Origin: Enterobacter phage Arya
Length of the DNA stretch: 41,918 bases
Sequence record: KX231828.1
Strand: one strand, 5' to 3'
Shown: in pieces, positions 10,826 to 40,210 of the stretch
Position numbering within the stretch: the stretch's first letter is position 1
Layout: each line of letters opens with the position of its first letter
Position numbers and translations under genes: made by a program
The notes under the pieces: model-generated
Told to the model about the DNA's origin: nothing
Databases searched by the model: none
What the model saw: only the letters and a program-made list of their open reading frames with translations

Positions 10826-11405
10826 CTTACTGCCATATAACGCCACAGACCAGGAACGCGCACTGGCGGAAACAACCGCCAGGATTAGTGACGTTCCTGT
10901 TATCGTGCGTGAAGTCTGGAACCCTGACACCTGCCCGTCAAACGTCCTTCCTTGGCTGGCATGGGCATTCAGCGTTGATGATTGGGACACCGACTGGACG
11001 GACGAACAAAAGCGCCGGGTGATTAAGGAATCTGTGTATTCGCAGCGCATCAAAGGCACCATTGGCGCAGTTACGCGCCAGCTTGCGGCGCTTGGCTACC
11101 AGATTCAAATCCTGGAATGGTTCCAGCAGTCACCGCAAGGCGCGCCGTATACGTTTAACGTTTACATTACAGCAAACCAATACCCGCTAACGCAGGCAGA
11201 CTTTCAGAAAATATTACAGGTCATCGACACCAACAAGAACCTGCGTTCACACATGGATGAAACTCAGTTGATTGTTAAGTCAGAGGATAAAACGACAGTT
11301 GGCATTATCTGTGGCACAGGGAACGAAATTAGTCTGACGAATTACACCAGGTTTGTTGGTGCATTGAACGACTATGTTATGGCGCAATCCAATATTTATA
11401 TATAG
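10809..11405 (+). CDS. tail protein I (P2 gpI-like)
   Basis: A 198-aa ORF: LPYNATDQERALAETTARISDVPVIVREVWNPDTCPSNVLPWLAWAFSVD is the P2 gpI family motif. Confidence 0.8.
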   Translation: MILMSDLLPYNATDQERALAETTARISDVPVIVREVWNPDTCPSNVLPWLAWAFSVDDWDTDWTDEQKRRVIKESVYSQRIKGTIGAVTRQLAALGYQIQILEWFQQSPQGAPYTFNVYITANQYPLTQADFQKILQVIDTNKNLRSHMDETQLIVKSEDKTTVGIICGTGNEISLTNYTRFVGALNDYVMAQSNIYI

Positions 11406-11413
11406 GTGATTAA

Positions 11414-13855
11414 GTGGAACTAAAAACATACTTTGCACAGGACAGAACAGGAAACCTGATTCCGTCAGCCACAGTGTCCATTTACCTGACCGGCACAACC
11501 ACGCTGGCAACAGGTCTGAAAAATGTTTCAGGTGGAAACCTGGCTAACCCATTTAGCGCCGATGCTGACGGTAAAATCCAGTTTTATGCACCTGATGGCA
11601 TCTATGATATGCAGGTTTCGCTAGGTAGCACCACTGGCGTAAAAGTAACGTTTCAATGTTTGGACGTACAACAGCAACTGACTGACGCAAATAGCGCTGC
11701 TGACCGTGCAGAAAATGCGGCGGAAAGCATTGAAGATCAGACAGCAACGATTACCGCCAACACCCGCGAACAATGGCGCAGAGCACTGGCAGACGCCGGT
11801 TTAAGCCTTGTGTCAGGAAGTTTTGAGGAAGGGGCTACGGCCACCACAACAATTGATGCTGTATGGAACCAGGAAGGCGGACAATGCTATACCTGGGGCG
11901 GAACGCTGCCAAAAACCGTTCCGGCTAATTCGACCCCTGGAAGCACAGGTGGCGTTTCTTCTGGCGCGTGGGTTAGTGTAGCTGGAGTCATCCTAAGAAG
12001 TGATCTGTTATCAGAGGTGACATCATTAGGTGATAACTTAATCACCGTGAAACAACCTATTTCTAACAGTTCAGCCAGGAAGCTACATGATTGGGTTTCT
12101 GACCATATATCAGTAACTGACATGGCTGGTGTTGTCGGTGATGGAGTAAACGACGACGCACCAGGAATTATCGCTGCTATAACGGCGCTTTCAGCGGCAA
12201 AAAAGCCCGTGGTATTTGTCCCTGGCACATACCTGATTAGCACCAGCATTACCTTTAACACCCCGGTAAAGATCCATAATGGTGCTGTTCTAAAGGCAAG
12301 AAACGGTGCTGTTATTAGGTTCAATGCTGAAATTCAAGCTGGTGAATACAAGGTTTTTGATACAAACGATGATTTCGTAAGCAATTACCTACAGGTTCCT
12401 TCTGTCAAGATTGCGATGGGGCCGGTTCGCCCGGAATGGTTTGGCGCAAGAACGGTCAGTTCTTATGCTGAATTGGCAACGTCCATTGATTGTTCTTCGG
12501 CATTCCATAAAGCCTGGCACGCCACTTGTGGTGAATTCAATGTAGAACTAACACCAGGAAGCTTCTATCAATCTGAATTTTACCATTCTTATATTCTACT
12601 GGCGGCCGGGAAATACCGCATTGATAATAATCTTAAGTTTTGGTATCGAGTAACATCACCATCAGTCATCCGATATAACAAGAACGGCGGTGGTATTGTG
12701 GGTGCTGGAATGGGTTTATCCGTTATAGTGCTAACTAACCCGGCAGATGAAAGTAACGCTGCTATGGAGTTTAGTGATATGAGCGGCGAATTGCACATGT
12801 TCAGGGACTTCAAAGTTACCTTTTACGATTTTAACGCCACTGGTGATGCTCGCTGGTTCGGTCGTACAGGCGCAGGTATTCTGTTCTCTAGTTCAGACAG
12901 TATTTACACCCTGAATCTATGGGCGGCAGGATTTAAATATTTGAAGTTGGATGGTGATGGTGTTCGACGTGGTGGCGTTGGTATTCAGTTCGAATCGCTT
13001 GTTGATCACTTTTATGGGAACCTGCTTACTGAACATTGCGTACACGGAGTGGCGTTTAGTTCTTGTGTATCAAATGGCTATAACGCAAAAGGATTTGTAA
13101 ATACTGTAGCAGACATATCGTGTGGTAATTTTATTCCGGCCTGGCCTGACCTTATTGACCAGACAGGTATTAATTTGATCGCTTTATCCGGCCTGGAAAG
13201 TAAAGCATGTCCGGCCACTCCTATTTACTTTGGTACTGCGGACAACAGAGTTAGCATCACAAATGTAAACGTTAAAGGTAACGGTGAATCTTCATCAGCC
13301 GTAGTAACATACAGGGTTATTGATTTTAACCCTGCTGGTGGCGGCGCATCAGGACTCATTCAGGGCAATGCCATGAACGTTAACTATGGTCTTATTGATG
13401 ACCGAACCACCGGTTTTGCTGGCCGTGATGGTAGACCACTACGTTTGGTTTTTAATCTGCACAATGTTGCTGGTGCATCGTCAACAGAAACGGCAGTTGC
13501 TGTTTTCAGAAATCCACTATCAAACATAGATGTAGACATGGGTATTGATGGAGCTAAATCACCTGCGTTGATCAGTAACTGTAACCATGCAAAAGCTAAC
13601 CTTAACCTGAATAATATTTCTGGTTATACTCAAGCGCCTTATGCGGCATTCATCTGCGGAGCAGGTAAATTATTAATTCAATCCTTGAAAGTAAATGCCA
13701 CCACTAATGCGACATATCTTGGATATGCTGGCGGTTCAGCGCAGGTAATTCTTCCAGCGGCAATGGATGTTGATATCGCACCAGTCAGAAAAGGTTCTGG
13801 TTCAACAGCTGATATCAGGCAAGTATCCTCAGCTACTTATAGCACCATTCAGTAA
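11414..13855 (+). CDS. tailspike/tail fibre with pectate-lyase-like right-handed beta-helix (putative polysaccharide depolymerase)
   Basis: An 813-aa ORF: SVTDMAGVVGDGVNDDAPGIIAAITALSAAKKPVVFVPGTYLI matches the Pectate_lyase_3/tailspike beta-helix signature (GDGxxDDxxAIQAAI). GTG start. A terminator follows at about 13861-13888. Confidence 0.7.
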   Translation: MELKTYFAQDRTGNLIPSATVSIYLTGTTTLATGLKNVSGGNLANPFSADADGKIQFYAPDGIYDMQVSLGSTTGVKVTFQCLDVQQQLTDANSAADRAENAAESIEDQTATITANTREQWRRALADAGLSLVSGSFEEGATATTTIDAVWNQEGGQCYTWGGTLPKTVPANSTPGSTGGVSSGAWVSVAGVILRSDLLSEVTSLGDNLITVKQPISNSSARKLHDWVSDHISVTDMAGVVGDGVNDDAPGIIAAITALSAAKKPVVFVPGTYLISTSITFNTPVKIHNGAVLKARNGAVIRFNAEIQAGEYKVFDTNDDFVSNYLQVPSVKIAMGPVRPEWFGARTVSSYAELATSIDCSSAFHKAWHATCGEFNVELTPGSFYQSEFYHSYILLAAGKYRIDNNLKFWYRVTSPSVIRYNKNGGGIVGAGMGLSVIVLTNPADESNAAMEFSDMSGELHMFRDFKVTFYDFNATGDARWFGRTGAGILFSSSDSIYTLNLWAAGFKYLKLDGDGVRRGGVGIQFESLVDHFYGNLLTEHCVHGVAFSSCVSNGYNAKGFVNTVADISCGNFIPAWPDLIDQTGINLIALSGLESKACPATPIYFGTADNRVSITNVNVKGNGESSSAVVTYRVIDFNPAGGGASGLIQGNAMNVNYGLIDDRTTGFAGRDGRPLRLVFNLHNVAGASSTETAVAVFRNPLSNIDVDMGIDGAKSPALISNCNHAKANLNLNNISGYTQAPYAAFICGAGKLLIQSLKVNATTNATYLGYAGGSAQVILPAAMDVDIAPVRKGSGSTADIRQVSSATYSTIQ

Positions 13856-13860
13856 GTGTC

Positions 13861-13888
13861 GAACCCCGCTACGGCGGGGTATTATTTA
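13861..13888 (+). terminator. rho-independent terminator after the tailspike gene
   Basis: GAACCCCGCTACGGCGGGGTATTATTT. Confidence 0.55.
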
Positions 13889-13913
13889 AATCATTGATAA
13901 TCGTAGGCGAAAA

Positions 13914-15284
13914 ATGGCATTCATTACGATACATACAAATTACGGTTTGCAATCGCTAGCGAGAGCAGAATCCACAGGCGTACCTATCAATCTGACTCAT
14001 ATGGCTGTAGGTGATGGAAACGGTAACGCGGTAACGCCGAACCCTTCACAAACAACACTTGTGCGAGAGCAGTTCAGAGCCACCATCAATCGCGTGTATC
14101 AGTCAGCGGATGACCCGCTGCGCTTCACTGCTGAACTGGTTATACCAGCAAGCACTGGCGGTTTCACGTTGCGGGAAGTTGGCGTGTTTGATGCCGATGG
14201 TTCGCTGTTCGCCGTTGGTAATCTTCCAGACACTTACAAGCCTGTTGATACAGAAGGTGCCTACTCTGACACAGTTGTGCGACTTGATTTCATGGTGAGC
14301 AACGCCAGCACCATTACTTTGCAGGTTGATCCAAATGTTGTTGTTGTTACGCAACAATGGATTTCAAACAACGTGACGGCTGGAACAATAATTCCAGGCG
14401 GAACCACCGGGCAGGTTCTTGCCAAACAATCAAACACTGATGGTGACGTGCATTGGGTTGACCCAACACAGGCAAACGTTGTGGTTGACACCATAACCGA
14501 AAAACAAACCCTGGCAGCAAGCCAGACAGTTGTCATGCTAACTGAAACCATCACGCGCGGATTGGCTGTATATATCGAAGGCATCAGATTGCCGCAAGGT
14601 TCTGGCGTTGATGAGTGGCAGCCTGATGCGACCGACCCGGAGAAATTCACACTTGGGAAATCTTATCCTGATGGTTCTATTTTGCAGGCAGTGAATAACG
14701 AACCAGCAGGAAGCGCACCGGCACCGCTGGAACGCAGCAAAAACCTGTCAGACGTAGCAGATAAATCAACTTCACGCACAAATCTTGATGTTTTTAGCAA
14801 ATCGGAAACGCGACAGATGGCACCTGCTGGCCTGGTGGCTAGTTTTGCCAGAAGTTCAGCGCCAACAGGATGGATGAAAGCTAATGGTGCGGCAGTCAGC
14901 CGAACCGCTTACGCTGACCTGTTCGCAGCGATCGGCACCACGTTTGGAGCAGGGGATGGGCTTACCACTTTTAACCTGCCAGATCTACGCGGTGAATTTG
15001 TTCGCTACCTGGATGACGGCAGAGGCGTTGACTCAGGCCGCGCGCTTGGTTCTGCGCAATCTCACGCGCTGCAAAATATCACAGGCAAGGTTGTTGATGC
15101 CCGTTTCAACGCGAATAAATCCGCATCAGGTGCTTTCACACTAACAACCATTGGCCCTGCTGATAACGTGTCTACTGGACCAGGCAGCGCCTGCACTGTG
15201 AATTTTGACGCATCACGTGTGGCGAACACCGCCACGGAAACCAGGCCGCGAAACGTTGCCCTGTTGGCTTGCATTAAATTCTAA
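13914..15284 (+). CDS. tail fibre protein, P2 gpH-like N-terminus with C-terminal phage tail-collar domain
   Basis: The N-terminus HMAVGDGNGNAVTPNPSQTTLVREQF...FTAELVIPASTGGFTLREVGVFDADGSLFAVGNLPDTYKP matches the P2 H baseplate-attachment domain (MAVGDGGGKLPVP...IIAELVIPPEVGGFWMRELGLYDDAGTLIAV). The C-terminus TAYADLFAAIGTTFGAGDGLTTFNLPDLRGEFVR is a tail-collar motif. Confidence 0.85.
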   Translation: MAFITIHTNYGLQSLARAESTGVPINLTHMAVGDGNGNAVTPNPSQTTLVREQFRATINRVYQSADDPLRFTAELVIPASTGGFTLREVGVFDADGSLFAVGNLPDTYKPVDTEGAYSDTVVRLDFMVSNASTITLQVDPNVVVVTQQWISNNVTAGTIIPGGTTGQVLAKQSNTDGDVHWVDPTQANVVVDTITEKQTLAASQTVVMLTETITRGLAVYIEGIRLPQGSGVDEWQPDATDPEKFTLGKSYPDGSILQAVNNEPAGSAPAPLERSKNLSDVADKSTSRTNLDVFSKSETRQMAPAGLVASFARSSAPTGWMKANGAAVSRTAYADLFAAIGTTFGAGDGLTTFNLPDLRGEFVRYLDDGRGVDSGRALGSAQSHALQNITGKVVDARFNANKSASGAFTLTTIGPADNVSTGPGSACTVNFDASRVANTATETRPRNVALLACIKF

Positions 15285-23553: not shown

Positions 23554-23635
23554 TTGTCCGTGGTTCTGACCTGCCCACGGTTATTGCGTGGGCATCATTG
23601 ATTATCATCGCAATTGTATTGGGATCTTTTTAATT

Positions 23636-24400
23636 ATGACTATTCGCAAACTGTATGACGCCAAAAAGCTGAACGCCAAACGCAATGGCGGCGCATGGTT
23701 CGTTCCATTCGCTGATTTGTACATGGAACCCGGCTACAACATCCGTGACGGTGAGATCAACGCGGAGAAGGTGCAGGCGTTCGCTGATGCCTACACCGCT
23801 GGTGAATACGTGCCAGCCATCACCGTTGACGTGACTGAACAAGGGCTGCGCGTGAACGATGGCCAGCACCGCTATTTAGGCGCGAAACTGGCCATTGAAA
23901 ACGGACTGGCATCGGTCCTGCTGGAAGTGGTTGACGTTACCGGCATTGAAACCGGCAAGAAGATTGCCCGCATGGTCAACGCCAATGACGGCACGCCAAC
24001 GTCACCTATTGCCCGCGCCAATGCCTATGCCCGCATGAAGGCGGAAGGCATGACCAATGACCAGATCGCCAAAGAGGTTCACCGCAGCCCGTCAGACGTG
24101 GCCAATTTCCTGGCCCTGGCTGCCTGCCCTGACGATATCAAAGCGATGGTGAGCGCTGGCCAGATGTCCTACGTGATGGCCATTGAAATGACCAAAGAGC
24201 ATGGCGACGACGCGCCAGCCGTGGCAGCCGAAGCGCTGGAAAAGGCCAAAGCCGCTGGCAAAGAGAAGGTGACGAAGAAGTTTACGGCACCGGCAGAGCC
24301 GAAGGAACCGAAGGAACCGGCTGAACCGGCAGCAACGGCACCGAAAGCGCCGAAGGCCAAACCGGAAGCCTTACAGCCGCCGTTCGGCAAAGCCAACTGA
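23636..24400 (+). CDS. ParB-like protein: N-terminal ParB/Srx-type DGQHR domain, central ParB HTH, C-terminal K/P/E-rich tail
   Basis: VNDGQHRYLGAKLA is a DGQHR motif (ParB N-terminal/DndB-like class). MTNDQIAKEVHRSPSDVANFLALAACPDDIKAMVSAGQMSYVMAIEMTK resembles the ParB HTH plus its following helix. The track ORF starts at 23588; the ATG at 23636 with RBS is more likely. Confidence 0.65.
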   Translation: MTIRKLYDAKKLNAKRNGGAWFVPFADLYMEPGYNIRDGEINAEKVQAFADAYTAGEYVPAITVDVTEQGLRVNDGQHRYLGAKLAIENGLASVLLEVVDVTGIETGKKIARMVNANDGTPTSPIARANAYARMKAEGMTNDQIAKEVHRSPSDVANFLALAACPDDIKAMVSAGQMSYVMAIEMTKEHGDDAPAVAAEALEKAKAAGKEKVTKKFTAPAEPKEPKEPAEPAATAPKAPKAKPEALQPPFGKAN

Positions 24401-25272: not shown

Positions 25273-25349
25273 TGGCGACCCCACCAGGAATCGAACCTGG
25301 AACCTACAGCTTAGAAGGCTGTCGCTCTATCCGGTTGAGCTATGGGGCC
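25273..25349 (-). tRNA. tRNA-Arg (anticodon UCU, decodes AGA/AGG), CCA encoded
   Basis: Manual fold of the reverse complement gives acceptor GGCCCCA/TGGGGTC, D-arm GCTC-AACCGGATA-GAGC, anticodon arm ACAGC-CTTCTAA-GCTGT (U33, anticodon TCT, A37), variable AGGTT, T-arm CCAGG-TTCGATT-CCTGG, discriminator G, and CCA. Confidence 0.85.
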
Positions 25350-30573: not shown

Positions 30574-31116
30574 TCAAATCTTTCTGTGGTGGCCTATTAC
30601 TTTGCCGATTACTTCCAGGCGTTCATCTGCCCAAGTAAAATCGACCTTATAAAGCGGATTATCGCAAGTAAGCCTAATCCCGCCTTCCAGATTGCGATGA
30701 CCGCGAACCAGGCGAGCTTCACCGTTCAAAATGATGGCGTAAACGCCAGCGTTGTCGATCCATGTAATCGACTTATCAATAAAGCAGTGGTCACCCTGCG
30801 CGAACGTGGGGGCCATCATATCGGTGGCGACAACTACCAGGCTGATGCGTTCCGCTGGAATGTCATAGAACTGCGCCAGGCCAGCCAGCGCGGATTCATT
30901 CAGGTCAGCACTGTTCGTTAGTGGCAGCGACCGCGCCAGCAGTTCTTCTTTGCTGCACCCAATAGCGGCGGCCAGCTTATCGAGAATTACCAGCGTCACC
31001 CGTTGTGGTTCGCGCTCCCACCGGCTGACCGTCACGGCGGTGGTTTTTAGTTTTTCAGCCACGTCCTGCAACGTAAGCCCGGCTGCCTGGCGGCGCTCTC
31101 TGATGCGGTTTGGCAT
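30574..31116 (-). CDS. CI-like repressor: N-terminal XRE-type HTH + C-terminal LexA/S24-like domain apparently lacking the catalytic Ser
   Basis: The HTH region is LTLQDVAEKLKTTAVTVSRWER. The C-terminal domain aligns with lambda cI/LexA S24, with the Lys motif EVIGKVIG present, but the G-D-S-M nucleophile motif reads T-D-M-M (VVVATDMMAPTFAQGDHCFID against VxGDSMxPxhxxGDxhhVD). Confidence 0.8.
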   Translation of the reverse strand: MPNRIRERRQAAGLTLQDVAEKLKTTAVTVSRWEREPQRVTLVILDKLAAAIGCSKEELLARSLPLTNSADLNESALAGLAQFYDIPAERISLVVVATDMMAPTFAQGDHCFIDKSITWIDNAGVYAIILNGEARLVRGHRNLEGGIRLTCDNPLYKVDFTWADERLEVIGKVIGHHRKI

Positions 31117-31285
31117 ATCGCTGTTTCCTTAACGTTCACGGTGAATGGACGGTTACCGGTACGGTTGATCCGAGTCAAGCCAGAGTCTATTTTCTTCACC
31201 GCTGTGGAAAACCATAGTTGGTTTCATGTACAATGACGTAAATCAATTAACCGTTACAGACAATGAATAACCGTGAAGGGCAATT
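31117..31285. promoter_or_regulatory. divergent early promoter/operator region between the repressor and the helicase operon
   Basis: A 169-bp gap with repeated half-site-like motifs: TTCACGG (31135) and its complement CCGTGAA (31271), plus ACGGTT/AACCGT four times (31150, 31162, 31252, 31271). A related ACGTGA/GCGTGAA pair lies downstream of cI at 30522-30538. Confidence 0.4.
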
Positions 31286-34506: not shown

Positions 34507-34545
34507 AAATTCTTAAATGGTCCTGCTATAGTAGGACCATTGTTT
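34507..34545 (+). terminator. rho-independent terminator / near-perfect 13-bp inverted repeat
   Basis: AATGGTCCTGCTA-TAGTAGGACCATT followed by GTTTATTTC. Confidence 0.6.
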
Positions 34546-34572
34546 ATTTCATTACTGATGGCGACGACATTT

Positions 34573-34767
34573 ATGAATAAGAATACGGAAAAACTAATTG
34601 CTCTGATGAACGCGCACCAGCTTACCTGCCGTGATGTTGGTAATATGTTGGGCCGCACTGTTTCAACCGTTCGCGTATGGCGCTGCGCCAACCCCGAAAG
34701 CCCGACCATCCCGAATGGACAGCTTGAATTGCTGGAACTGAAACTGGCGCAGCAGGCAGCACAGTGA
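34573..34767 (+). CDS. small HTH DNA-binding protein (putative replication-module regulator)
   Basis: MNKNTEKLIALMNAHQLTCRDVGNMLGRTVSTVRVWRCAN has an HTH pattern. It is the first gene after the terminator and upstream of the primase. Confidence 0.5.
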   Translation: MNKNTEKLIALMNAHQLTCRDVGNMLGRTVSTVRVWRCANPESPTIPNGQLELLELKLAQQAAQ

Positions 34768-34994
34768 ACGTCTGCACCTGGCAGCCAGCTACCTTGACCC
34801 TGCACGATGGGCGCGAAGTGTTGAGCGATAGCCGGGATTGGTTGCTGGAATGTGAAGCCAACTACGTGCTGAAACAGCCAACCATTGAAGAACGGCGCAA
34901 CCTGCTGGCAGCGATAGAAAAACGGCGCGGTAAAACAGCCCGCGAAGAATTAGAACAACGCGCATTGACTATCTGGCGCGCTAAACGCTCTTAA
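34764..34994 (+). CDS. hypothetical protein
   Basis: A 76-aa ORF with a GTG start overlapping the upstream stop, directly preceding the primase gene. Confidence 0.35.
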   Translation: MNVCTWQPATLTLHDGREVLSDSRDWLLECEANYVLKQPTIEERRNLLAAIEKRRGKTAREELEQRALTIWRAKRS

Positions 34995-35004
34995 TCGGGG
35001 TTCT

Positions 35005-37305
35005 ATGAGTGCACAGCCAAATTACAAGGATTTGACCGAACAGGAAATTGCAGAGGCGCTTTCGTATATCGACGCCAGTTGCGACCGGGAAACCTGGGTA
35101 CGCATGGCAATGGCGGTCAAATCAGAATTGGGTGACGGTGGTTTCACCGTCTGGAATGACTGGTCAAAACAGTCTGGCAAATACGATACCAAATCAGCAC
35201 GCTACACCTGGCGCAGCGTTAAGCGTCACGGCGGCATTGCCATTGGCACGCTGATTGGTGAGGCGAAACTGTTTGGCTTTTCCCTGAACGATGCGGAACG
35301 CACCCCGCTGTCAGGTGAAGAAATCGCCGCACGTAAGCAGCGCCGCGAAGCAGAGGAGCGCGCCGAAGCCGAACGCCTGGCCGCATACCGTGCGAAGGCA
35401 GCCGAACAGGCACGCACCATTTGGGAATCTGCCGCTGACATCGAGGGCAGCGAACACCCGTACCTGTCACGCAAAGGCGTGAACGCGTTCGGGCTGCGTG
35501 TTGGCCGGTTCTGGACCGATAAGCGCAGCATTGATGGCGCACTGCTGATTCCTGTTCGTAACATTGACGGGCAGATCACCAGCGTTCAGGCCATCTTCCC
35601 GAACGAAAACCCGCAGTTGGGCCGTGACCGTGACTACCTGCCAGGCGGCCAGAAGCGTGGATGCTTCCACGTCATCGGCAACAAGCCAACCGGGCAGAAA
35701 CCCGTCATTGTGGTCTGTGAGGGCTACGCCACTGGTGCATCCATTCACCAGGCTACCGGGTTCTGTGTGGCCGTGGCATTCGATGACGGCAACCTGCCTA
35801 CTGTGGCCAGACTTCTGCGCCAGCAGTTCGGCAGCGCCACAATTGTTGTGGCTGCGGATAATGACCAGTGGACCGAAGGCAACCCCGGCGTTCACTTCGC
35901 GCGCCAGGCAGCTACAGCAGCCTGTGCAATCCTGGTGGTGCCAAAATTCGACGTAATGAGCGACCAGCCAACCGACTTCAATGACCTGCAAAAACTGCAA
36001 GGCATCGAAGAGGTAAGGCACCAAATCCAGGCGGTCATCCCTGAACCGGCAAATGATAATTTCCTGGATCTGGATTCCAACGTATCGCCGTTCGAATTCC
36101 CGCACCTGTCAGACAAGATGCAGCCGCTGAACACCTGGGAAAACCTGGATTGGATGTTGAGCCAGTACGGCATCACATCGCGTTACAACGAGATCAGCAA
36201 AGACGTGGTTGTTTCCATACCTGGGAAGGACTACGGCAACGACGCATCAGCCAACTGTTCCCTGGCGGAAATATCCAGCCTGTGCGCGCGTAACCGTATG
36301 CCAAAAGGTGACGTGGGCGATTACATCAAACTGATTGGCGTGGCCAACCGCTTCAACCCTGCGGCTGATTTCATCACGTCAAAGCCGTGGGATGGCACCA
36401 GCCGCATTTATGACCTGTGTGACACGCTGGAAACCGCGCCTGGGTTTGACCGCAGCCTGGTGTTGATGCTGGTTCGCCGCTGGCTGATTTCCGCCGTAGC
36501 CGCAGCCATGCAGCCAACCGGGTTCTGGTCCAAAGGCGTCCTGGTGCTACAGGGTGAACAATCCCTGGGTAAAACCGCATGGTTCCGCGCGCTGGTTCCT
36601 GACCTACACAGAAATCTGGTTAAAATCGGCGCAACTATCGATCCAAGTAATAAGGACAGCATCAGCAGTGCAATCGGTCACTGGATGGTTGAATTAGGCG
36701 AACTGGATGCGACGTTCCGCAAAGCCGACATTGCGCGCCTTAAGTCATTCATCAGCCAGGACCGTGATGACCTGCGCAGACCATATGACCGCCTGGAATC
36801 GAAGTACCAGCGCCGCACCGTGTTTTTTGCGTCAGTGAACCCGAAACACTTTCTGGCCGATGACACCGGGAACGTGCGCTGGTGGACCATCCCTGTAACA
36901 AGCGTGAACTATGAACACGACATTGACACACAACAATTGTGGGCCGAAGTGGCGCAACTGTTCCGTGACGGTGAACGCTGGTGGTTAGAACCACACGAAG
37001 AACAGGCGCTGGAACAGGTCAACCGTGACCACGAAGCGATTGACCCGGTAGAGGAAATGATCCTGTCACGTTATGAATGGGGTTGTGACCGCATTGGCGC
37101 TTACAGTGAGCAGACGGCCAGCCAGGTGCTGCAAACCATCGGGTTTGATAAGCCGAACAAATCACAGGCCACGAATTGCAGCAACGTGCTGCGTAAGCTG
37201 ACCGGCGAAGAACCGCGCAAGACCAAAAACGGGCGTTTCTTCAACCTGCCGCCGAAGGTGTTACAGCCTGATTACAGGCGGCCACAGGATGACGAGCCAT
37301 TTTAA
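35005..37305 (+). CDS. bifunctional primase-helicase, P4 alpha / D5-like (PriCT_2 N-terminus, TOPRIM, SF3 helicase)
   Basis: The N-terminus WNDWSKQSGKYDTKSARYTWRSV has a PriCT_2-like pattern. TOPRIM is PVIVVCEGYATGASIHQATG...VVAADNDQ. The SF3 helicase Walker A is VLVLQGEQSLGKTAWF. The C-terminal about 100 aa is a putative DNA-binding domain. Confidence 0.85.
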   Translation: MSAQPNYKDLTEQEIAEALSYIDASCDRETWVRMAMAVKSELGDGGFTVWNDWSKQSGKYDTKSARYTWRSVKRHGGIAIGTLIGEAKLFGFSLNDAERTPLSGEEIAARKQRREAEERAEAERLAAYRAKAAEQARTIWESAADIEGSEHPYLSRKGVNAFGLRVGRFWTDKRSIDGALLIPVRNIDGQITSVQAIFPNENPQLGRDRDYLPGGQKRGCFHVIGNKPTGQKPVIVVCEGYATGASIHQATGFCVAVAFDDGNLPTVARLLRQQFGSATIVVAADNDQWTEGNPGVHFARQAATAACAILVVPKFDVMSDQPTDFNDLQKLQGIEEVRHQIQAVIPEPANDNFLDLDSNVSPFEFPHLSDKMQPLNTWENLDWMLSQYGITSRYNEISKDVVVSIPGKDYGNDASANCSLAEISSLCARNRMPKGDVGDYIKLIGVANRFNPAADFITSKPWDGTSRIYDLCDTLETAPGFDRSLVLMLVRRWLISAVAAAMQPTGFWSKGVLVLQGEQSLGKTAWFRALVPDLHRNLVKIGATIDPSNKDSISSAIGHWMVELGELDATFRKADIARLKSFISQDRDDLRRPYDRLESKYQRRTVFFASVNPKHFLADDTGNVRWWTIPVTSVNYEHDIDTQQLWAEVAQLFRDGERWWLEPHEEQALEQVNRDHEAIDPVEEMILSRYEWGCDRIGAYSEQTASQVLQTIGFDKPNKSQATNCSNVLRKLTGEEPRKTKNGRFFNLPPKVLQPDYRRPQDDEPF

Positions 37306-37308
37306 TCA

Positions 37309-37336
37309 ATAACCCGCTTCGGCGGGTTTTTCGTTT
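37309..37336 (+). terminator. rho-independent terminator
   Basis: AACCCGCTTCGGCGGGTTTTTCGTTTATT, immediately after the primase stop. Confidence 0.75.
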
Positions 37337-37577
37337 ATTGATAGGTATAAACGATTAGCCCATTTAAGAAGTTAAACGTATAGTTATTACATAGGGCGGC
37401 GGCAGGATGCAGCCGGAGAGGAGCAACGCAGGGGCTTGATCGTAGTGTCAGGATTCCCAACCGTGAGGCCGAACATTGGACACTCGCCGAAAGGCAGAAC
37501 GCTTACCAATGACATCGAACCGAGGCTACCGACGAAGCACGACGCCCACAATTAACAGCATCATGAGGGGCAGCGCG

Positions 37578-37793
37578 ATGGCGGCAGAAACCAGCAAAGC
37601 AATCAGCGTAAAGACAAACAGCAGAGGCATCAAATATTGCCTGGTCAGCAACAGTCAGGGATTTGAAGTCTGGAAGCTGTGCGAAAACTATTGCCGTCAG
37701 ACCAAAGGCGGAATTCGTAAAACGTGGCGCTATGTCGAAAAAGGCATGACGCAGGAAGCGGCTGAAAAACTGTTTAAACGCCGCACGAAATAA
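37578..37793 (+). CDS. small basic hypothetical protein (71 aa)
   Basis: MAAETSKAISVKTNSRGIKYCLVSNSQGFEVWKLCENYCRQTKGGIRKTWRYVEKGMTQEAAEKLFKRRTK. GAGGGG lies 7 nt upstream of the ATG at 37578. The track ORF starts at 37476. Confidence 0.45.
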   Translation: MAAETSKAISVKTNSRGIKYCLVSNSQGFEVWKLCENYCRQTKGGIRKTWRYVEKGMTQEAAEKLFKRRTK

Positions 37794-37842
37794 CCAACCC
37801 TGCCCCACTTCGCGTGGGGCCAATAAAAACGAGGTAACACCC

Positions 37843-38211
37843 ATGTTAGTGAAAGAGACAAACGGAAAAATCAATTTCATCGACCGCAATGATTGTTTCG
37901 TTGGGTTCGATTATGCACAGGACTGCTGTGAATCGTTCGGCTGGTACTTGAACACCATCTGGTCAACCGAAGCATCACCGCTTTTCACCAGCGAAAACTT
38001 TGCAGACGAGAAAGCACTGGATGGGTTCTGGTTCGACACTGCAACAGATCCGGTTAGTGTTGACGATGACGCCAACGACGAGGGCGGAACGGTAGCATTC
38101 CGCTGCGTGAACTCCGCTGGCGATGTTCTATGGCTGCACCTGTACAACGCACATAACGGCTACTACTCGCACGGCTGGGAAACATCCTGGGGCCAGGCTG
38201 GCAGCCTGTGA
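37843..38211 (+). CDS. hypothetical protein (moron 3, conserved hairpin+leader upstream)
   Basis: A 122-aa ORF preceded by the hairpin CCCCAC-TTCG-CGTGGGG and the leader CCAATAAAAACGAGGTAACACCCATG. Confidence 0.55.
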   Translation: MLVKETNGKINFIDRNDCFVGFDYAQDCCESFGWYLNTIWSTEASPLFTSENFADEKALDGFWFDTATDPVSVDDDANDEGGTVAFRCVNSAGDVLWLHLYNAHNGYYSHGWETSWGQAGSL

Positions 38212-38285
38212 ACAACATCATTTTCATCTACGCCATCAGCGCACTGCTGGTGGCACATGCACTGATTGAATTGGGGGTTTTATGA
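38208..38285 (+). CDS. tiny hydrophobic peptide (25 aa, GTG start)
   Basis: VNNIIFIYAISALLVAHALIELGVL, overlapping the stop and start of its neighbours (GTGA and ATGA). Speculative. Confidence 0.2.
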   Translation: MNNIIFIYAISALLVAHALIELGVL

Positions 38286-39040
38286 AAGAACAACTGTACC
38301 GCCTGGCCAGACATATTGCCGCTGCAAAAGGCGGTCTGCCAGCAGAATGGCAGGATTGGGCGGAAGAAATTGAATCCGACCTGCGCCGGTTATCATCGCA
38401 GTCAGAGCCGGTGGCCAGTTTTGAAGAAGCCGTGGAACTGTTCAAAACAATGAACATTGGTTTTCCTGTTGAGCGCACGAAAGCTGACTATGTGATTGGC
38501 TGGTGCCTGGCCAACATGTTCCAGCCAGGTCAGGAACGCCGCCAGGTGCGCGCTGACCACGCTGAATGGTCACAGGAAGCGTTTGGCGACGTTGGCCCTG
38601 TTGGACCACTGAAACACCTGTCAATAGAAGCGCTGGAAGCCGCAGCAGCGCCAGGCGACCTTTCTGAATGGGCTGACATGCAATTCCTGCTGTGGGATGC
38701 GCAGCGCCGTGCTGGCATCACTGACGAGCAAATTACGCAGGCCATGATTGATAAGCTGGCAGTGAACAAAGCGCGCACCTGGCAGGAACCTAAAGACGGA
38801 GAACCGCGCCTGCACATCCAGCCGGATAATGACAACACCGCGCAGCAGTTTGAAGCGCTGGCCACCAGCAATGCCCATGATTGCTTATGGTCATATGACA
38901 GCCATCAAGGAACATGGCATGGCAAGTGCGGCGTTTATTGGGTGTTCATGGACGATGGCCCGGATGAAAACGGGATGAAGTTCTGCCCTGGGTGCGGCAA
39001 GCCGGTTTCTACCACCAGCGCGGGGAGCGGCAAGCAATGA
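38282..39040 (+). CDS. DUF550-type dATP/dGTP pyrophosphohydrolase (MazG-like) domain protein with N-terminal extension and C-terminal zinc ribbon
   Basis: ADHAEWSQEAFGDVGPVGPLKHLSIEALEAAAAPGDLSEWADMQFLLWDAQRRAGITDEQITQAMIDKLAVNKARTWQEPKDGEPRLHI matches the phage DUF550 signature. The C-terminus is HGKCGVYWVF...CPGCGKP. Confidence 0.7.
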   Translation: MKEQLYRLARHIAAAKGGLPAEWQDWAEEIESDLRRLSSQSEPVASFEEAVELFKTMNIGFPVERTKADYVIGWCLANMFQPGQERRQVRADHAEWSQEAFGDVGPVGPLKHLSIEALEAAAAPGDLSEWADMQFLLWDAQRRAGITDEQITQAMIDKLAVNKARTWQEPKDGEPRLHIQPDNDNTAQQFEALATSNAHDCLWSYDSHQGTWHGKCGVYWVFMDDGPDENGMKFCPGCGKPVSTTSAGSGKQ

Positions 39041-39369
39041 GCCTGGCCGGTGACATCCTGCGGCGGCTCAACCTGCCGGTGACCATTCAGGAATCACCGG
39101 CACCACAGCCACAACCGCAGCCGAAACCAGAACCGACACTGCTGGATAAGAAGCACATCAAATGGAACTGTGCACAGCGCGAGTTTTACGGGGTGACGTT
39201 CAGTAAGCGTAAACAGAAGTGGCAGGCGCGCATAACAACCCCAAAAGGTAAAATCGTGCTGGGTTATTTCAGAAAACGACAACGCGCCGCAATAGCTGTG
39301 CAATTATATTTGTTGTGGTTCAGACGTGGATTTATTGATATTCCAACAGGAAAATACTTGACAGAATAA
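39037..39369 (+). CDS. AP2-domain DNA-binding protein with Pro/Gln-rich linker
   Basis: YGVTFSKRKQKWQARITTPKGKIVLGYFRKRQRAAIAVQLY fits the AP2 (YRGV..RK.GKW.A.I...GK...LG.F...EEAA.AY) pattern. The ATGA start overlaps the upstream stop. A terminator follows. Confidence 0.55.
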   Translation: MSLAGDILRRLNLPVTIQESPAPQPQPQPKPEPTLLDKKHIKWNCAQREFYGVTFSKRKQKWQARITTPKGKIVLGYFRKRQRAAIAVQLYLLWFRRGFIDIPTGKYLTE

Positions 39370-39371
39370 CC

Positions 39372-39399
39372 AAAAGCCGCCTTCGGGCGGTTTTTTATT
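39372..39399 (+). terminator. rho-independent terminator
   Basis: AAAAGCCGCCTTCGGGCGGTTTTTTATT. Confidence 0.75.
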
Positions 39400-39403
39400 G
39401 CCC

Positions 39404-39700
39404 GGTGACCAACTTTCTTGTCACCTGGTCACCACTTAGTCACCTACTTGGTCACCACTTAAGTTGCTGATATCTCTATATAATACCTTATAGGTGACTA
39501 AGGGTGACAAGATATATATAAAATAGGATAACCGTATATTGTATAGAGAATAGCCAATAGGTCGTATAACTTTAGAAAATCGCTGTCACTTGGTCACCTT
39601 TCGCATAAAAAACGCCTGTTTTTCTTTATTAATCAATGCGTTCAAGTGGTGACTAACTATTTTCGAGCTTGTCACCCGTTAGTCACCTGTTGTGGTCACC
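39404..39700. repeat. array of 13 GGTSACC/GTCACC iteron-like repeats in direct and inverted orientation, interspersed with AT-rich DNA (putative origin or activator-binding array)
   Basis: Copies start at 39404, 39420, 39427, 39439, 39450, 39493 (inverted), 39503 (inverted), 39585, 39592, 39648 (inverted), 39671, 39682 and 39694. Direct copies are spaced 8-13 bp apart, about one helical turn. The AT-rich segments are 39461-39492 and 39509-39584. Confidence 0.7.
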
Positions 39701-39760
39701 GTTTAAGTTTTGCGCTACAATCACAGCCATTGACTTTTATTTATAATTACCTGGGATTAT

Positions 39761-40210
39761 ATGGACCTTCCGCGCAGTGTTCAGGATATAGCTGACGTTA
39801 TTGGGCGTGAACGTGCGCTTTATCTTATCGGCCAGTTGCCAACCTACACCGTCAAAGATACCCGCTGGCCATCTGCTACCCGAACCAAAATCATTCTGTA
39901 TGTGCCAAAGACCTTAAAGCCCACTGATGACCTGGTGCGCATCATTGGCTGGAATGACGCATCAAAACTGGTTCACTATTTCGGCGGTGAATTGCTCTAC
40001 CCTGGAACGTGCGCGGAACTGCACCGGCGCTTCATGGTCCAAACCATCAGACGCCTGGCAGCCGAAGGAATGAGCCATAAAGCCATCGCCTTCAATCTGG
40101 ATGTGTCAGAACGCACCGTGAAGCGTCATTGCTCGGACAACACCCCCAAAGACATTAGCGCGGCTAACGATAACCATCGGCAGCGACTTATCACAGCTAT
40201 GGGGCATTAA
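39761..40210 (+). CDS. putative late-gene transcriptional activator, Mor/C-family-like (C-terminal HTH)
   Basis: YFGGELLYPGTCAELHRRFMVQTIRRLAAEGMSHKAIAFNLDVSERTVKRHCS resembles Mu Mor (GGQVYIPRGQALDSLIRDLRIW...ELTTRYGVTFNTVYKAIRR). It sits directly upstream of the lysis cassette. A TTGACT-17-GATTAT promoter-like sequence is at 39731-39759. Confidence 0.4.
   Translation: MDLPRSVQDIADVIGRERALYLIGQLPTYTVKDTRWPSATRTKIILYVPKTLKPTDDLVRIIGWNDASKLVHYFGGELLYPGTCAELHRRFMVQTIRRLAAEGMSHKAIAFNLDVSERTVKRHCSDNTPKDISAANDNHRQRLITAMGH

Follow-up and report, generated by a model that had tools for sequence, protein, structure and literature searches.

SaPI Rep proteins are self-loading helicase-initiators whose C-terminal winged-helix domain binds penta- or hexanucleotide iterons. 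A SaPI origin comprises 6-12 such iterons just downstream of rep, arranged around an AT-rich centre with at least two oppositely pointing copies on each side (PMC9371898). The PICIs of E. coli share this origin layout, and their pri-rep-ori segment drives plasmid replication (PMC6092414).

Phage P4 requires two loci, ori and crr, which lie 4.5 kb apart, and additionally carries type-2 repeats. Its alpha protein, composed of a Toprim primase, an SF3 helicase and a C-terminal origin-binding domain, binds the P4 iterons itself. According to the annotated P4 record, the type-1 iterons (C)TGTTCACC occur in both orientations, 9-11 bp apart and with AT-rich flanks. The theta plasmids (pSC101, R6K, F, P1) have phased direct repeats of 17-22 bp beside an AT-rich unwinding element, DnaA boxes, a possible IHF site and a winged-helix initiator, and they depend on loading of the host DnaB/DnaC.

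Here, we analysed the complete genome of the Jilinvirus-like Enterobacter phage Arya (KX231828.1; 41,918 nt, the window of this study), a 42-kb myovirus. Among sequenced phages, those closest to Arya are KA2-1 of Klebsiella and, from Jilinvirus, ECOO78, ep3, PT1, Alux-21 and HeidiAbel/Bas97 (subfamily Iiscvirinae). The genome announcement mentions neither an origin nor repeats (PMC5754474), and the BASEL paper calls the lifestyle of the Jilinvirus/Iiscvirinae group "enigmatic" and does not discuss replication (PMC11990801). A literature search combining GTCACC and iteron returned only primer sequences, and a megablast against E. coli genomes gave no match. We describe an array of GTCACC repeats which, judged from sequence comparison, is probably the lytic replication origin of Arya, of the SaPI/PICI/P4 type, with iterons read by the winged helix of the phage's own primase-helicase. 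This kind of origin is already known from P4 and the SaPI/PICI satellites, but had gone unremarked in this group of phages.

Genome context and anatomy of the array

The genes of Arya are organised in four blocks, with the array located between the third and the fourth:

up to ~25 kb, plus strand: terminase and structural genes
25.9-31.1 kb, minus strand: leftward early block with SSB, an AAA_24 protein, an exonuclease and a CI-like repressor
from 31.3 kb, plus strand: rightward early block with a DEAD-box helicase, small genes, DUF7696, the primase-helicase, a MazG-like and an AP2-like gene, followed by terminator and array
from 39761, plus strand: lysis/late block, late activator first, directly followed by holins, endolysin and spanin

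The array is non-coding and flanked by a terminator and a promoter. It closes the rightward block that also contains the primase-helicase gene, whose stop codon lies 2.1 kb upstream; four or five small ORFs and a terminator (37311-37328) occupy the interval. In the region directly after the primase-helicase gene (37311-37393), a strong intrinsic terminator of -11.8 kcal/mol is followed by a stretch of 25% GC without iterons. The segment from this terminator to the array (37476-39369) varies in gene content from 1 to ~13 genes among relatives. The first-pass annotation had placed the array between an AP2-domain gene and a Mor-like activator gene. The upstream product gave no Pfam AP2 match; its matches are to PHROG 4947 (a family of unknown function) and, at a weak level, to AP2-like segments of HNH endonuclease families. 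For the downstream product, assignment as an activator is supported by PHROG 836 and HTH matches, while no Pfam Mor match was obtained at E <= 0.01 for the Arya protein and one homologue showed a weak one.

Several further features were observed elsewhere in the genome. A CI-like repressor with HTH_3 and Peptidase_S24 domains is encoded at 30574-31116 (minus strand), contrary to the genome announcement, according to which no repressor gene is present (PMC5754474). The adjacent divergent intergenic region (31117-31285) contains the palindrome GTTCACGGTGAAT and the related ACCGTGAAGG, which look like operators. A tRNA-Arg gene (anticodon TCT) at 25273-25349 (minus strand) lies next to an integrase pseudogene according to the same announcement (PMC5754474). 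The ParB-like gene (23588-24400) stands at the end of the structural block in Arya, and distant relatives have its homologue in the rightward early block instead. The tail-fibre region (11000-14000) has a low GC content (43-49% vs 54%), which suggests horizontal acquisition of host-range genes.

The array and its immediate surroundings comprise the following elements:

39372-39399, plus strand: intrinsic terminator (hairpin and T6 run; RNAfold -14.6 kcal/mol), kept in all relatives, which closes the early-right operon
39404-39456, both orientations: iteron cluster A, forming the left module; the copy at 39404-39412 is inverted, and those at 39417-39425, 39425-39433, 39436-39444 and 39448-39456 are direct
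39461-39492, no strand: AT-rich spacer 1 (25% GC), separating the convergent clusters A and B
39493-39511, minus strand: iteron cluster B, two inverted copies (GGTGACTAA, GGTGACAAG), 10 bp apart
39509-39584, no strand: central AT-rich region of 76 bp (27.6% GC vs 54.1% for the genome), candidate DNA-unwinding element
39582-39598, plus strand: iteron cluster C, two direct copies, of which GCTGTCACT is degenerate and the other reads TTGGTCACC, opposite in orientation to cluster B across the AT-rich core
39607-39643, plus strand: conserved A-tract followed by AATCAATGCGTTC, IHF-site-like, with one mismatch to WATCAANNNNTTR; a lead only
39648-39700, both orientations: iteron cluster D, forming the right module; the copy at 39648-39656 is inverted, and those at 39668-39676, 39679-39687 and 39692-39700 are direct
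39693-39721, plus strand: promoter-like site P1, -35 TGGTCA, 17-nt spacer, -10 TACAAT (39716-39721), invariant in relatives
39729-39749, plus strand: invariant 21-mer ATTGACTTTTATTTATAATTA, promoter-like site P2, perfect -10 TATAAT (39742-39747), no usable -35
39761-40210, plus strand: late transcriptional activator gene (PHROG 836, C-terminal HTH), first gene of the lysis/late block and presumably a neighbour of the origin rather than the iteron reader

The first-pass annotation had reported 13 copies of GTCACC/GGTGAC in about 300 bp of non-coding DNA, and positions 39404-39700 indeed hold 12 exact hexamers and one degenerate GTCACT (39585-39590). The hexamer is overrepresented in the whole genome (56 sites in both orientations vs 21 +/- 4.6 expected), and its concentration at the array is exceptional: the background outside the array amounts to 0.32 copies per 300 bp (Poisson P(>=12) ~1.6e-15), and the 300-bp window second in density contains 3 copies. 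When the clustering of 6-mers was compared over the whole genome, the 12 GTCACC copies at the array stood against 7 at the runner-up site. The reported spacing of about one helical turn and the inverted copies at 39493, 39503 and 39648 were reproduced, with intra-cluster distances of 8, 11, 12, 10, 8, 11 and 13 bp (mean 10.4) and a fourth inverted copy at 39404; the remaining nine copies are direct. The proposed extension of most copies to GGTSACC was overstated, as it fits 5 of the 13; YTNGTCACC, a 6-nt core in a 9-nt site that is T-rich 5' of the hexamer, describes them better. Beyond the array, this extended motif occurs only six times in the genome and forms no second cluster. The array itself is built from two homologous modules of ~65 bp (39404-39466 and 39648-39710), which are ~75% identical and lie 244 bp apart.

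Both AT-rich tracts noted in the first-pass annotation, 39461-39492 and 39509-39584, are present, and the centre of the array is the least stable DNA of the phage. The 80-bp duplex of lowest stability in the genome, at 39472-39551 (-87.4 kcal/mol vs a mean of -118.4, sd 6.7), spans spacer 1, cluster B and the left half of the central AT-rich region, and the lowest-GC windows of 100 bp and of 150 bp are also located in the array region. The AT-rich centre is flanked by two oppositely pointing iterons on each side, namely the two inverted copies of cluster B and the two direct copies, one of them degenerate, of cluster C. A DnaA box (TTATCCACA, <=2 mismatches) was not found within 39400-39760, which fits a self-loading initiator. 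An Rfam scan of 39200-39900 returned two sub-threshold chance matches only and indicated no RNA element. Extremes of AT content and cumulative GC skew had both been proposed as a check of the origin. The windows of lowest GC content fall in the array; the skew rises over plus-strand genes and falls over 25-31 kb, and thus follows the direction of transcription and gives no information on the origin.

The IHF-like element at 39607-39643 is so named for its resemblance to the IHF consensus, WATCAANNNNTTR. With its A-tract and AATCAATGCGTTC, this element resembles a strong IHF site of the lambda H' type. Relatives keep the ATCAA and the upstream A/T run, not the TTR part, and the conserved string reads AAAAA...TCTTTAT.AATCAAG.

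At its right edge, the array merges with the promoter region of the late activator, where the -35 of P1 falls inside the last GTCACC copy (39692-39700). This rightmost copy may be mainly a -35 box, because L137, a relative whose local iteron is TTGGTAAC, nevertheless retains TTGTCACC...CTACAAT. In the left module, the TGGTCA at 39449 lacks a suitably spaced -10, which leaves the right module as the only one with a promoter. The 21-mer ATTGACTTTTATTTATAATTA between P1 and the activator start codon occurs once in the genome and is unchanged in all seven relatives of the Jilinvirus type; it may serve as a promoter dependent on the activator or as a site of autoregulation.

The primase-helicase and comparison with described origins

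The candidate initiator is encoded by a single gene:

35005-37305, plus strand: primase-helicase gene, 766 aa, with PriCT_2, Toprim, VapE-like SF3 helicase and a predicted winged-helix C-terminal domain

The first-pass annotation had called this protein a P4-alpha-like primase-helicase. For the primase part this is supported by 28% identity to P4 alpha over 309 aa (BLASTP, E 1e-18), whereas the helicase is of the VapE type and not of the D5/DUF5906 type. The VapE-like domain (Pfam E 4.5e-51) matches SaPI1 Rep1 (PDB 7PDS, E 3.9e-17 over residues 442-638), and both matches place the protein with the self-loading helicases of the Rep family. The predicted winged-helix domain covers approximately residues 700-750 (nt ~37100-37255). 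An AF2 model of residues 660-766 revealed an H-S-H-H-S-S topology with a mean pLDDT of 76, and the fold matches of this C-terminal model are weak, with nearly all of them being winged-helix proteins. The evidence for a winged helix is moderate. No sequence similarity was detected between the C-terminal domains of the Arya protein and P4 alpha.

The closest known system is the SaPI/PICI origin, with P4 ori/crr second. Arya shares with SaPIs and PICIs the short iterons, of which 12 exact copies and one GTCACT within 297 bp compare with 6-12 copies of 5-6 nt, as well as two opposite sets flanking an AT-rich putative melting region and the lack of a DnaA box. The SF3/VapE helicase initiator is also common to both, and it is fused to a primase as in PriRep5 of SaPI5; in Arya, its winged helix is predicted. 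The differences concern position and complexity. The SaPI origin is located immediately 3' of rep, in contrast to the Arya array with its distance of 2.1 kb, and this position counts against the reading of the array as an origin. Furthermore, Arya is a complete myovirus and not a satellite, its array consists of four clusters with two AT-rich tracts and two homologous modules, its right edge is interlocked with the late-activator promoter, and its primase is of the Toprim/PriCT_2 type.

With P4, Arya shares a Toprim primase joined to an SF3 helicase and to a C-terminal domain, which binds the origin in P4 and is predicted to do so in Arya. The P4 helicase is, however, of the D5_N/DUF5906/Pox_D5 type. 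The resemblance of the TCACC core to the P4 type-I iteron, already noted in the first-pass annotation, extends to 7 of 9 positions between CTGTTCACC of P4 and CTTGTCACC of Arya, so that the two are similar and not identical. Their spacing, their occurrence in both orientations and their AT-rich flanks are likewise alike. In contrast to the two P4 loci, Arya has a single locus with two modules, and no second GTCACC cluster as in a bipartite ori/crr arrangement was found in its genome. In P4 (L131, 4291-4590 and 9086-9809), crr directly follows the terminator of alpha, and the late sid-delta-psu operon, whose delta protein is an activator, is immediately preceded by ori. The single Arya locus occupies both of these positions, after the terminator of the replication operon and before the late-activator gene.

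Theta-plasmid origins are like the Arya locus in their phased direct repeats beside an AT-rich unwinding element, the winged-helix initiator, which is predicted in Arya, and the possible IHF site. They differ in the length of their iterons (17-22 bp vs 6-9 bp in Arya) and in their host-derived helicase, as the presumed Arya initiator is itself a helicase-primase; the combination of long iterons and DnaA boxes typical of RepA-type plasmids is absent from the array (39400-39760).

Conservation, covariation and alternative explanations

As suggested in the first-pass annotation, the array was sought in relatives, and its architecture was found in every one examined, where it follows the terminator that closes the rightward early block. 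The intergenic region is ~69-77% identical in six GenBank and two metagenomic relatives (L007, L008), with an unchanged layout. From left to right, this layout consists of the terminator, one inverted and four direct copies, ~30 bp of AT-rich DNA, two inverted copies, 60-100 bp of AT-rich DNA, one or two direct copies, the A-tract followed by ATCAA, one or two inverted and two or three direct copies, and the promoter. The cluster A arrangement of one inverted and four direct copies was also seen in KA2-1, Bas97, ECOO78, PT1, Alux-21, L007 and L008. In an alignment of five non-redundant relatives, 52 of 78 iteron columns are invariant vs 67 of 228 spacer columns (Fisher p = 9e-9), a pattern which indicates that the repeats are under purifying selection.

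More distant relatives were retrieved via homologues of the activator and of the primase; a search of viral contigs with the activator protein alone confirmed no related locus. In total, twelve related phages and contigs with nine iteron classes display the same architecture. The classes are listed with the recognition helix predicted for the C-terminal domain of their primase:

YTNGTCACC, in Arya, KA2-1, L007, L008 and the E. coli Jilinviruses: KSQATNCSNVLRK (E. coli phages: KAQTTHCAGVLRK)
GGTNGTCAY, in L009: KTQATDCSRLLQK
TNGTCAT, in L133: KGQATHASKVLKK
TAGTCCCA, in L134: KAQATHASKVLQR
TGCATCCC, in L132: NKRAKEMGTVLRK
GTGTAG / GCACTG, in L010: QSDVTKAAGFLRK
ATAACCCC, in L135: KTQSTQMRIVLEK
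TTGGACCCTG, in L136: RAAATQASTLLKK
TTGGTAAC, in L137: KKQATDVSAILRK

The predicted helix differs in each of the nine classes, and a K-x-Q-A/T-T motif is kept in all four classes with an NGTC core. Apparently, the iteron sequence changes together with the predicted winged-helix domain of the primase, a covariation that was assessed by eye over nine classes and is partly confounded by the divergence of the primases.

We also scanned a viral contig collection for GTCACC-N2-7-GTCACC-N2-7-GTCACC and obtained at least 19 dense arrays of mixed orientation. Among the matches listed, which are a sample and not a census, an SF3 primase-helicase gene precedes 10 of the 19 arrays. The encoded proteins belong, among these matches, to the VapE type (L051, L095, L075), carry Prim-Pol, PriCT_2, D5_N, DUF5906 or Pox_D5 domains (L111, L093, L122, L058, L012, L049) or comprise a DnaG-like Toprim primase (L102). 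These 10 helicases among the matches listed are mutually <=55% identical, and in nine of the ten contigs the first iteron begins 1-67 nt past the helicase stop codon. This association within the matches listed implies that GTCACC arrays travel with this helicase class, and the related TTCACC iteron of P4 likewise accompanies an SF3 primase-helicase. Homologues of the activator, the AP2-like protein, the small HTH protein and DUF7696 were not found in these contigs among the matches listed. The C-terminal 115 residues of the unrelated array-associated helicases and P4 alpha were too divergent to be aligned, so that no shared recognition motif can be claimed.

The location of the array exactly at the early/late boundary raises the question whether it serves as an operator or enhancer of the late-activator promoter, bound by the activator, the AP2-like protein or the small HTH protein and devoid of origin function. 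The array ends at this promoter in most relatives, its last copy overlaps the -35, and a set of short repeats facing both ways is typical of an operator, too. We nevertheless consider an operator unlikely, because none of its possible readers follows the repeats. The HTH helix of the activator, SE/DRHVRN, is nearly identical (SERHVRN) in L009, L132, L135, L136 and L137 despite five different iterons, so that the sites do not track the C-terminal HTH in the way of Mor/C-type activator sites. The small HTH protein (34540-34767) has one helix common to L133 and L137 and another common to L010 and L132, again with different iterons, and two relatives with an array lack the AP2-like gene, namely L009 and L007, the latter having the GTCACC array of Arya. 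The two alternatives offered in the first-pass annotation, a binding array for the AP2-domain protein or for the Mor-like activator, are therefore not borne out. Moreover, another gene lies between the array and the activator gene in L134 and L010, the extended motif is rare and unclustered outside the array, and the GTCACC arrays of unrelated contigs, among the matches listed, follow primase-helicase genes with no activator homologue nearby. The same argument from recognition helices applies to a centromere-like (ParB/partition) or a terminase recognition (cos/pac) site, which we regard as highly improbable. Such a site might be suspected since the phage encodes the ParB-like protein and a Nu1-like small terminase, and since P1 parS and lambda cosB pair short repeats with an IHF site, comparable to the IHF-like element between clusters C and D. 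However, L135 and L136 have almost the same HTH in the ParB-like protein and yet different iterons (ATAACCCC and TTGGACCCTG), and the N-terminal HTH of TerS is similar in L010 and L134, whose iterons differ. The complete lysis cassette separates the array from terS, which lies 2.3 kb downstream, and by analogy with lambda a cos or pac site is expected in the 165-bp gap before terS.

An origin may also be envisaged whose iterons are read by a separate small protein, such as DUF7696, that recruits the primase-helicase in the manner of lambda O with P-DnaB. In Arya, as in all relatives examined, the DUF7696 gene (34764-34994) is a direct neighbour of the primase-helicase gene, mostly just on its upstream side and in L133 on its downstream side, and the moderate evidence for the winged helix of the primase leaves room for such a partner. 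A separate reader appears decidedly unlikely, as the unrelated contigs with GTCACC arrays have no DUF7696 homologue among the matches listed, as SaPI Rep, PICI Rep and P4 alpha, all homologues of the Arya protein, bind their iterons themselves, and as DUF7696 has no recognised DNA-binding domain by its Pfam family labels. DUF7696 may still be a replication cofactor or a co-reader of the iterons.

Proposed mode of action and implications

The reading of the array as a phage origin recognised by a P4-alpha-like primase-helicase, put forward in the first-pass annotation, is supported by the homology of the protein, the resemblance of the iterons, and the conservation and covariation of the locus. 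The repeats, their conservation, the minimum of GC content and duplex stability, the protein homologies, the covariation of iterons and C-terminal domains and the association with SF3 helicases are computational observations; binding, melting, helicase loading and an effect on the promoter are the steps that we infer from them. In the proposed mechanism, the winged-helix C-terminal domain of the primase-helicase would bind the 9-bp iterons YTNGTCACC, with the oppositely oriented clusters B and C flanking the AT-rich core at 39509-39584 and with modules A and D as further binding sites. The bound protomers would form hexamers at both flanks of the AT-rich DNA and melt it without DnaA, whereupon the primase-helicase would load itself as the replicative helicase and its Toprim domain would prime synthesis. 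The upstream terminator would keep early transcription out of the origin and thereby shield the array from read-through.

Initiator occupancy at the rightmost copy may also affect the late-activator promoter, and regulation of this promoter by initiator binding is a speculation. One can go further and assume that origin and late-activator promoter are interlocked: the primase-helicase bound to the right module would cover the -35, and its occupancy, or its departure when replication fires, would gate the activator, so that the onset of replication controls the late and lysis genes. The nine pairs of iteron and winged helix would also represent mutually incompatible replicons. We consider this extended proposal rather unlikely.

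The array and the primase-helicase provide a concrete candidate for origin and initiator in the Jilinvirus/Iiscvirinae phages, whose replication is otherwise unstudied. If the array is indeed the origin, the layout of two iteron sets around an AT-rich core would also occur in complete myoviruses. With nine pairs of iteron and C-terminal domain that have diverged in nature while the scaffold stayed conserved, the family offers material for studying how winged helices read DNA and for orthogonal replicons, and the overlap of the array with the promoter is a lead to replication-coupled control of late genes.
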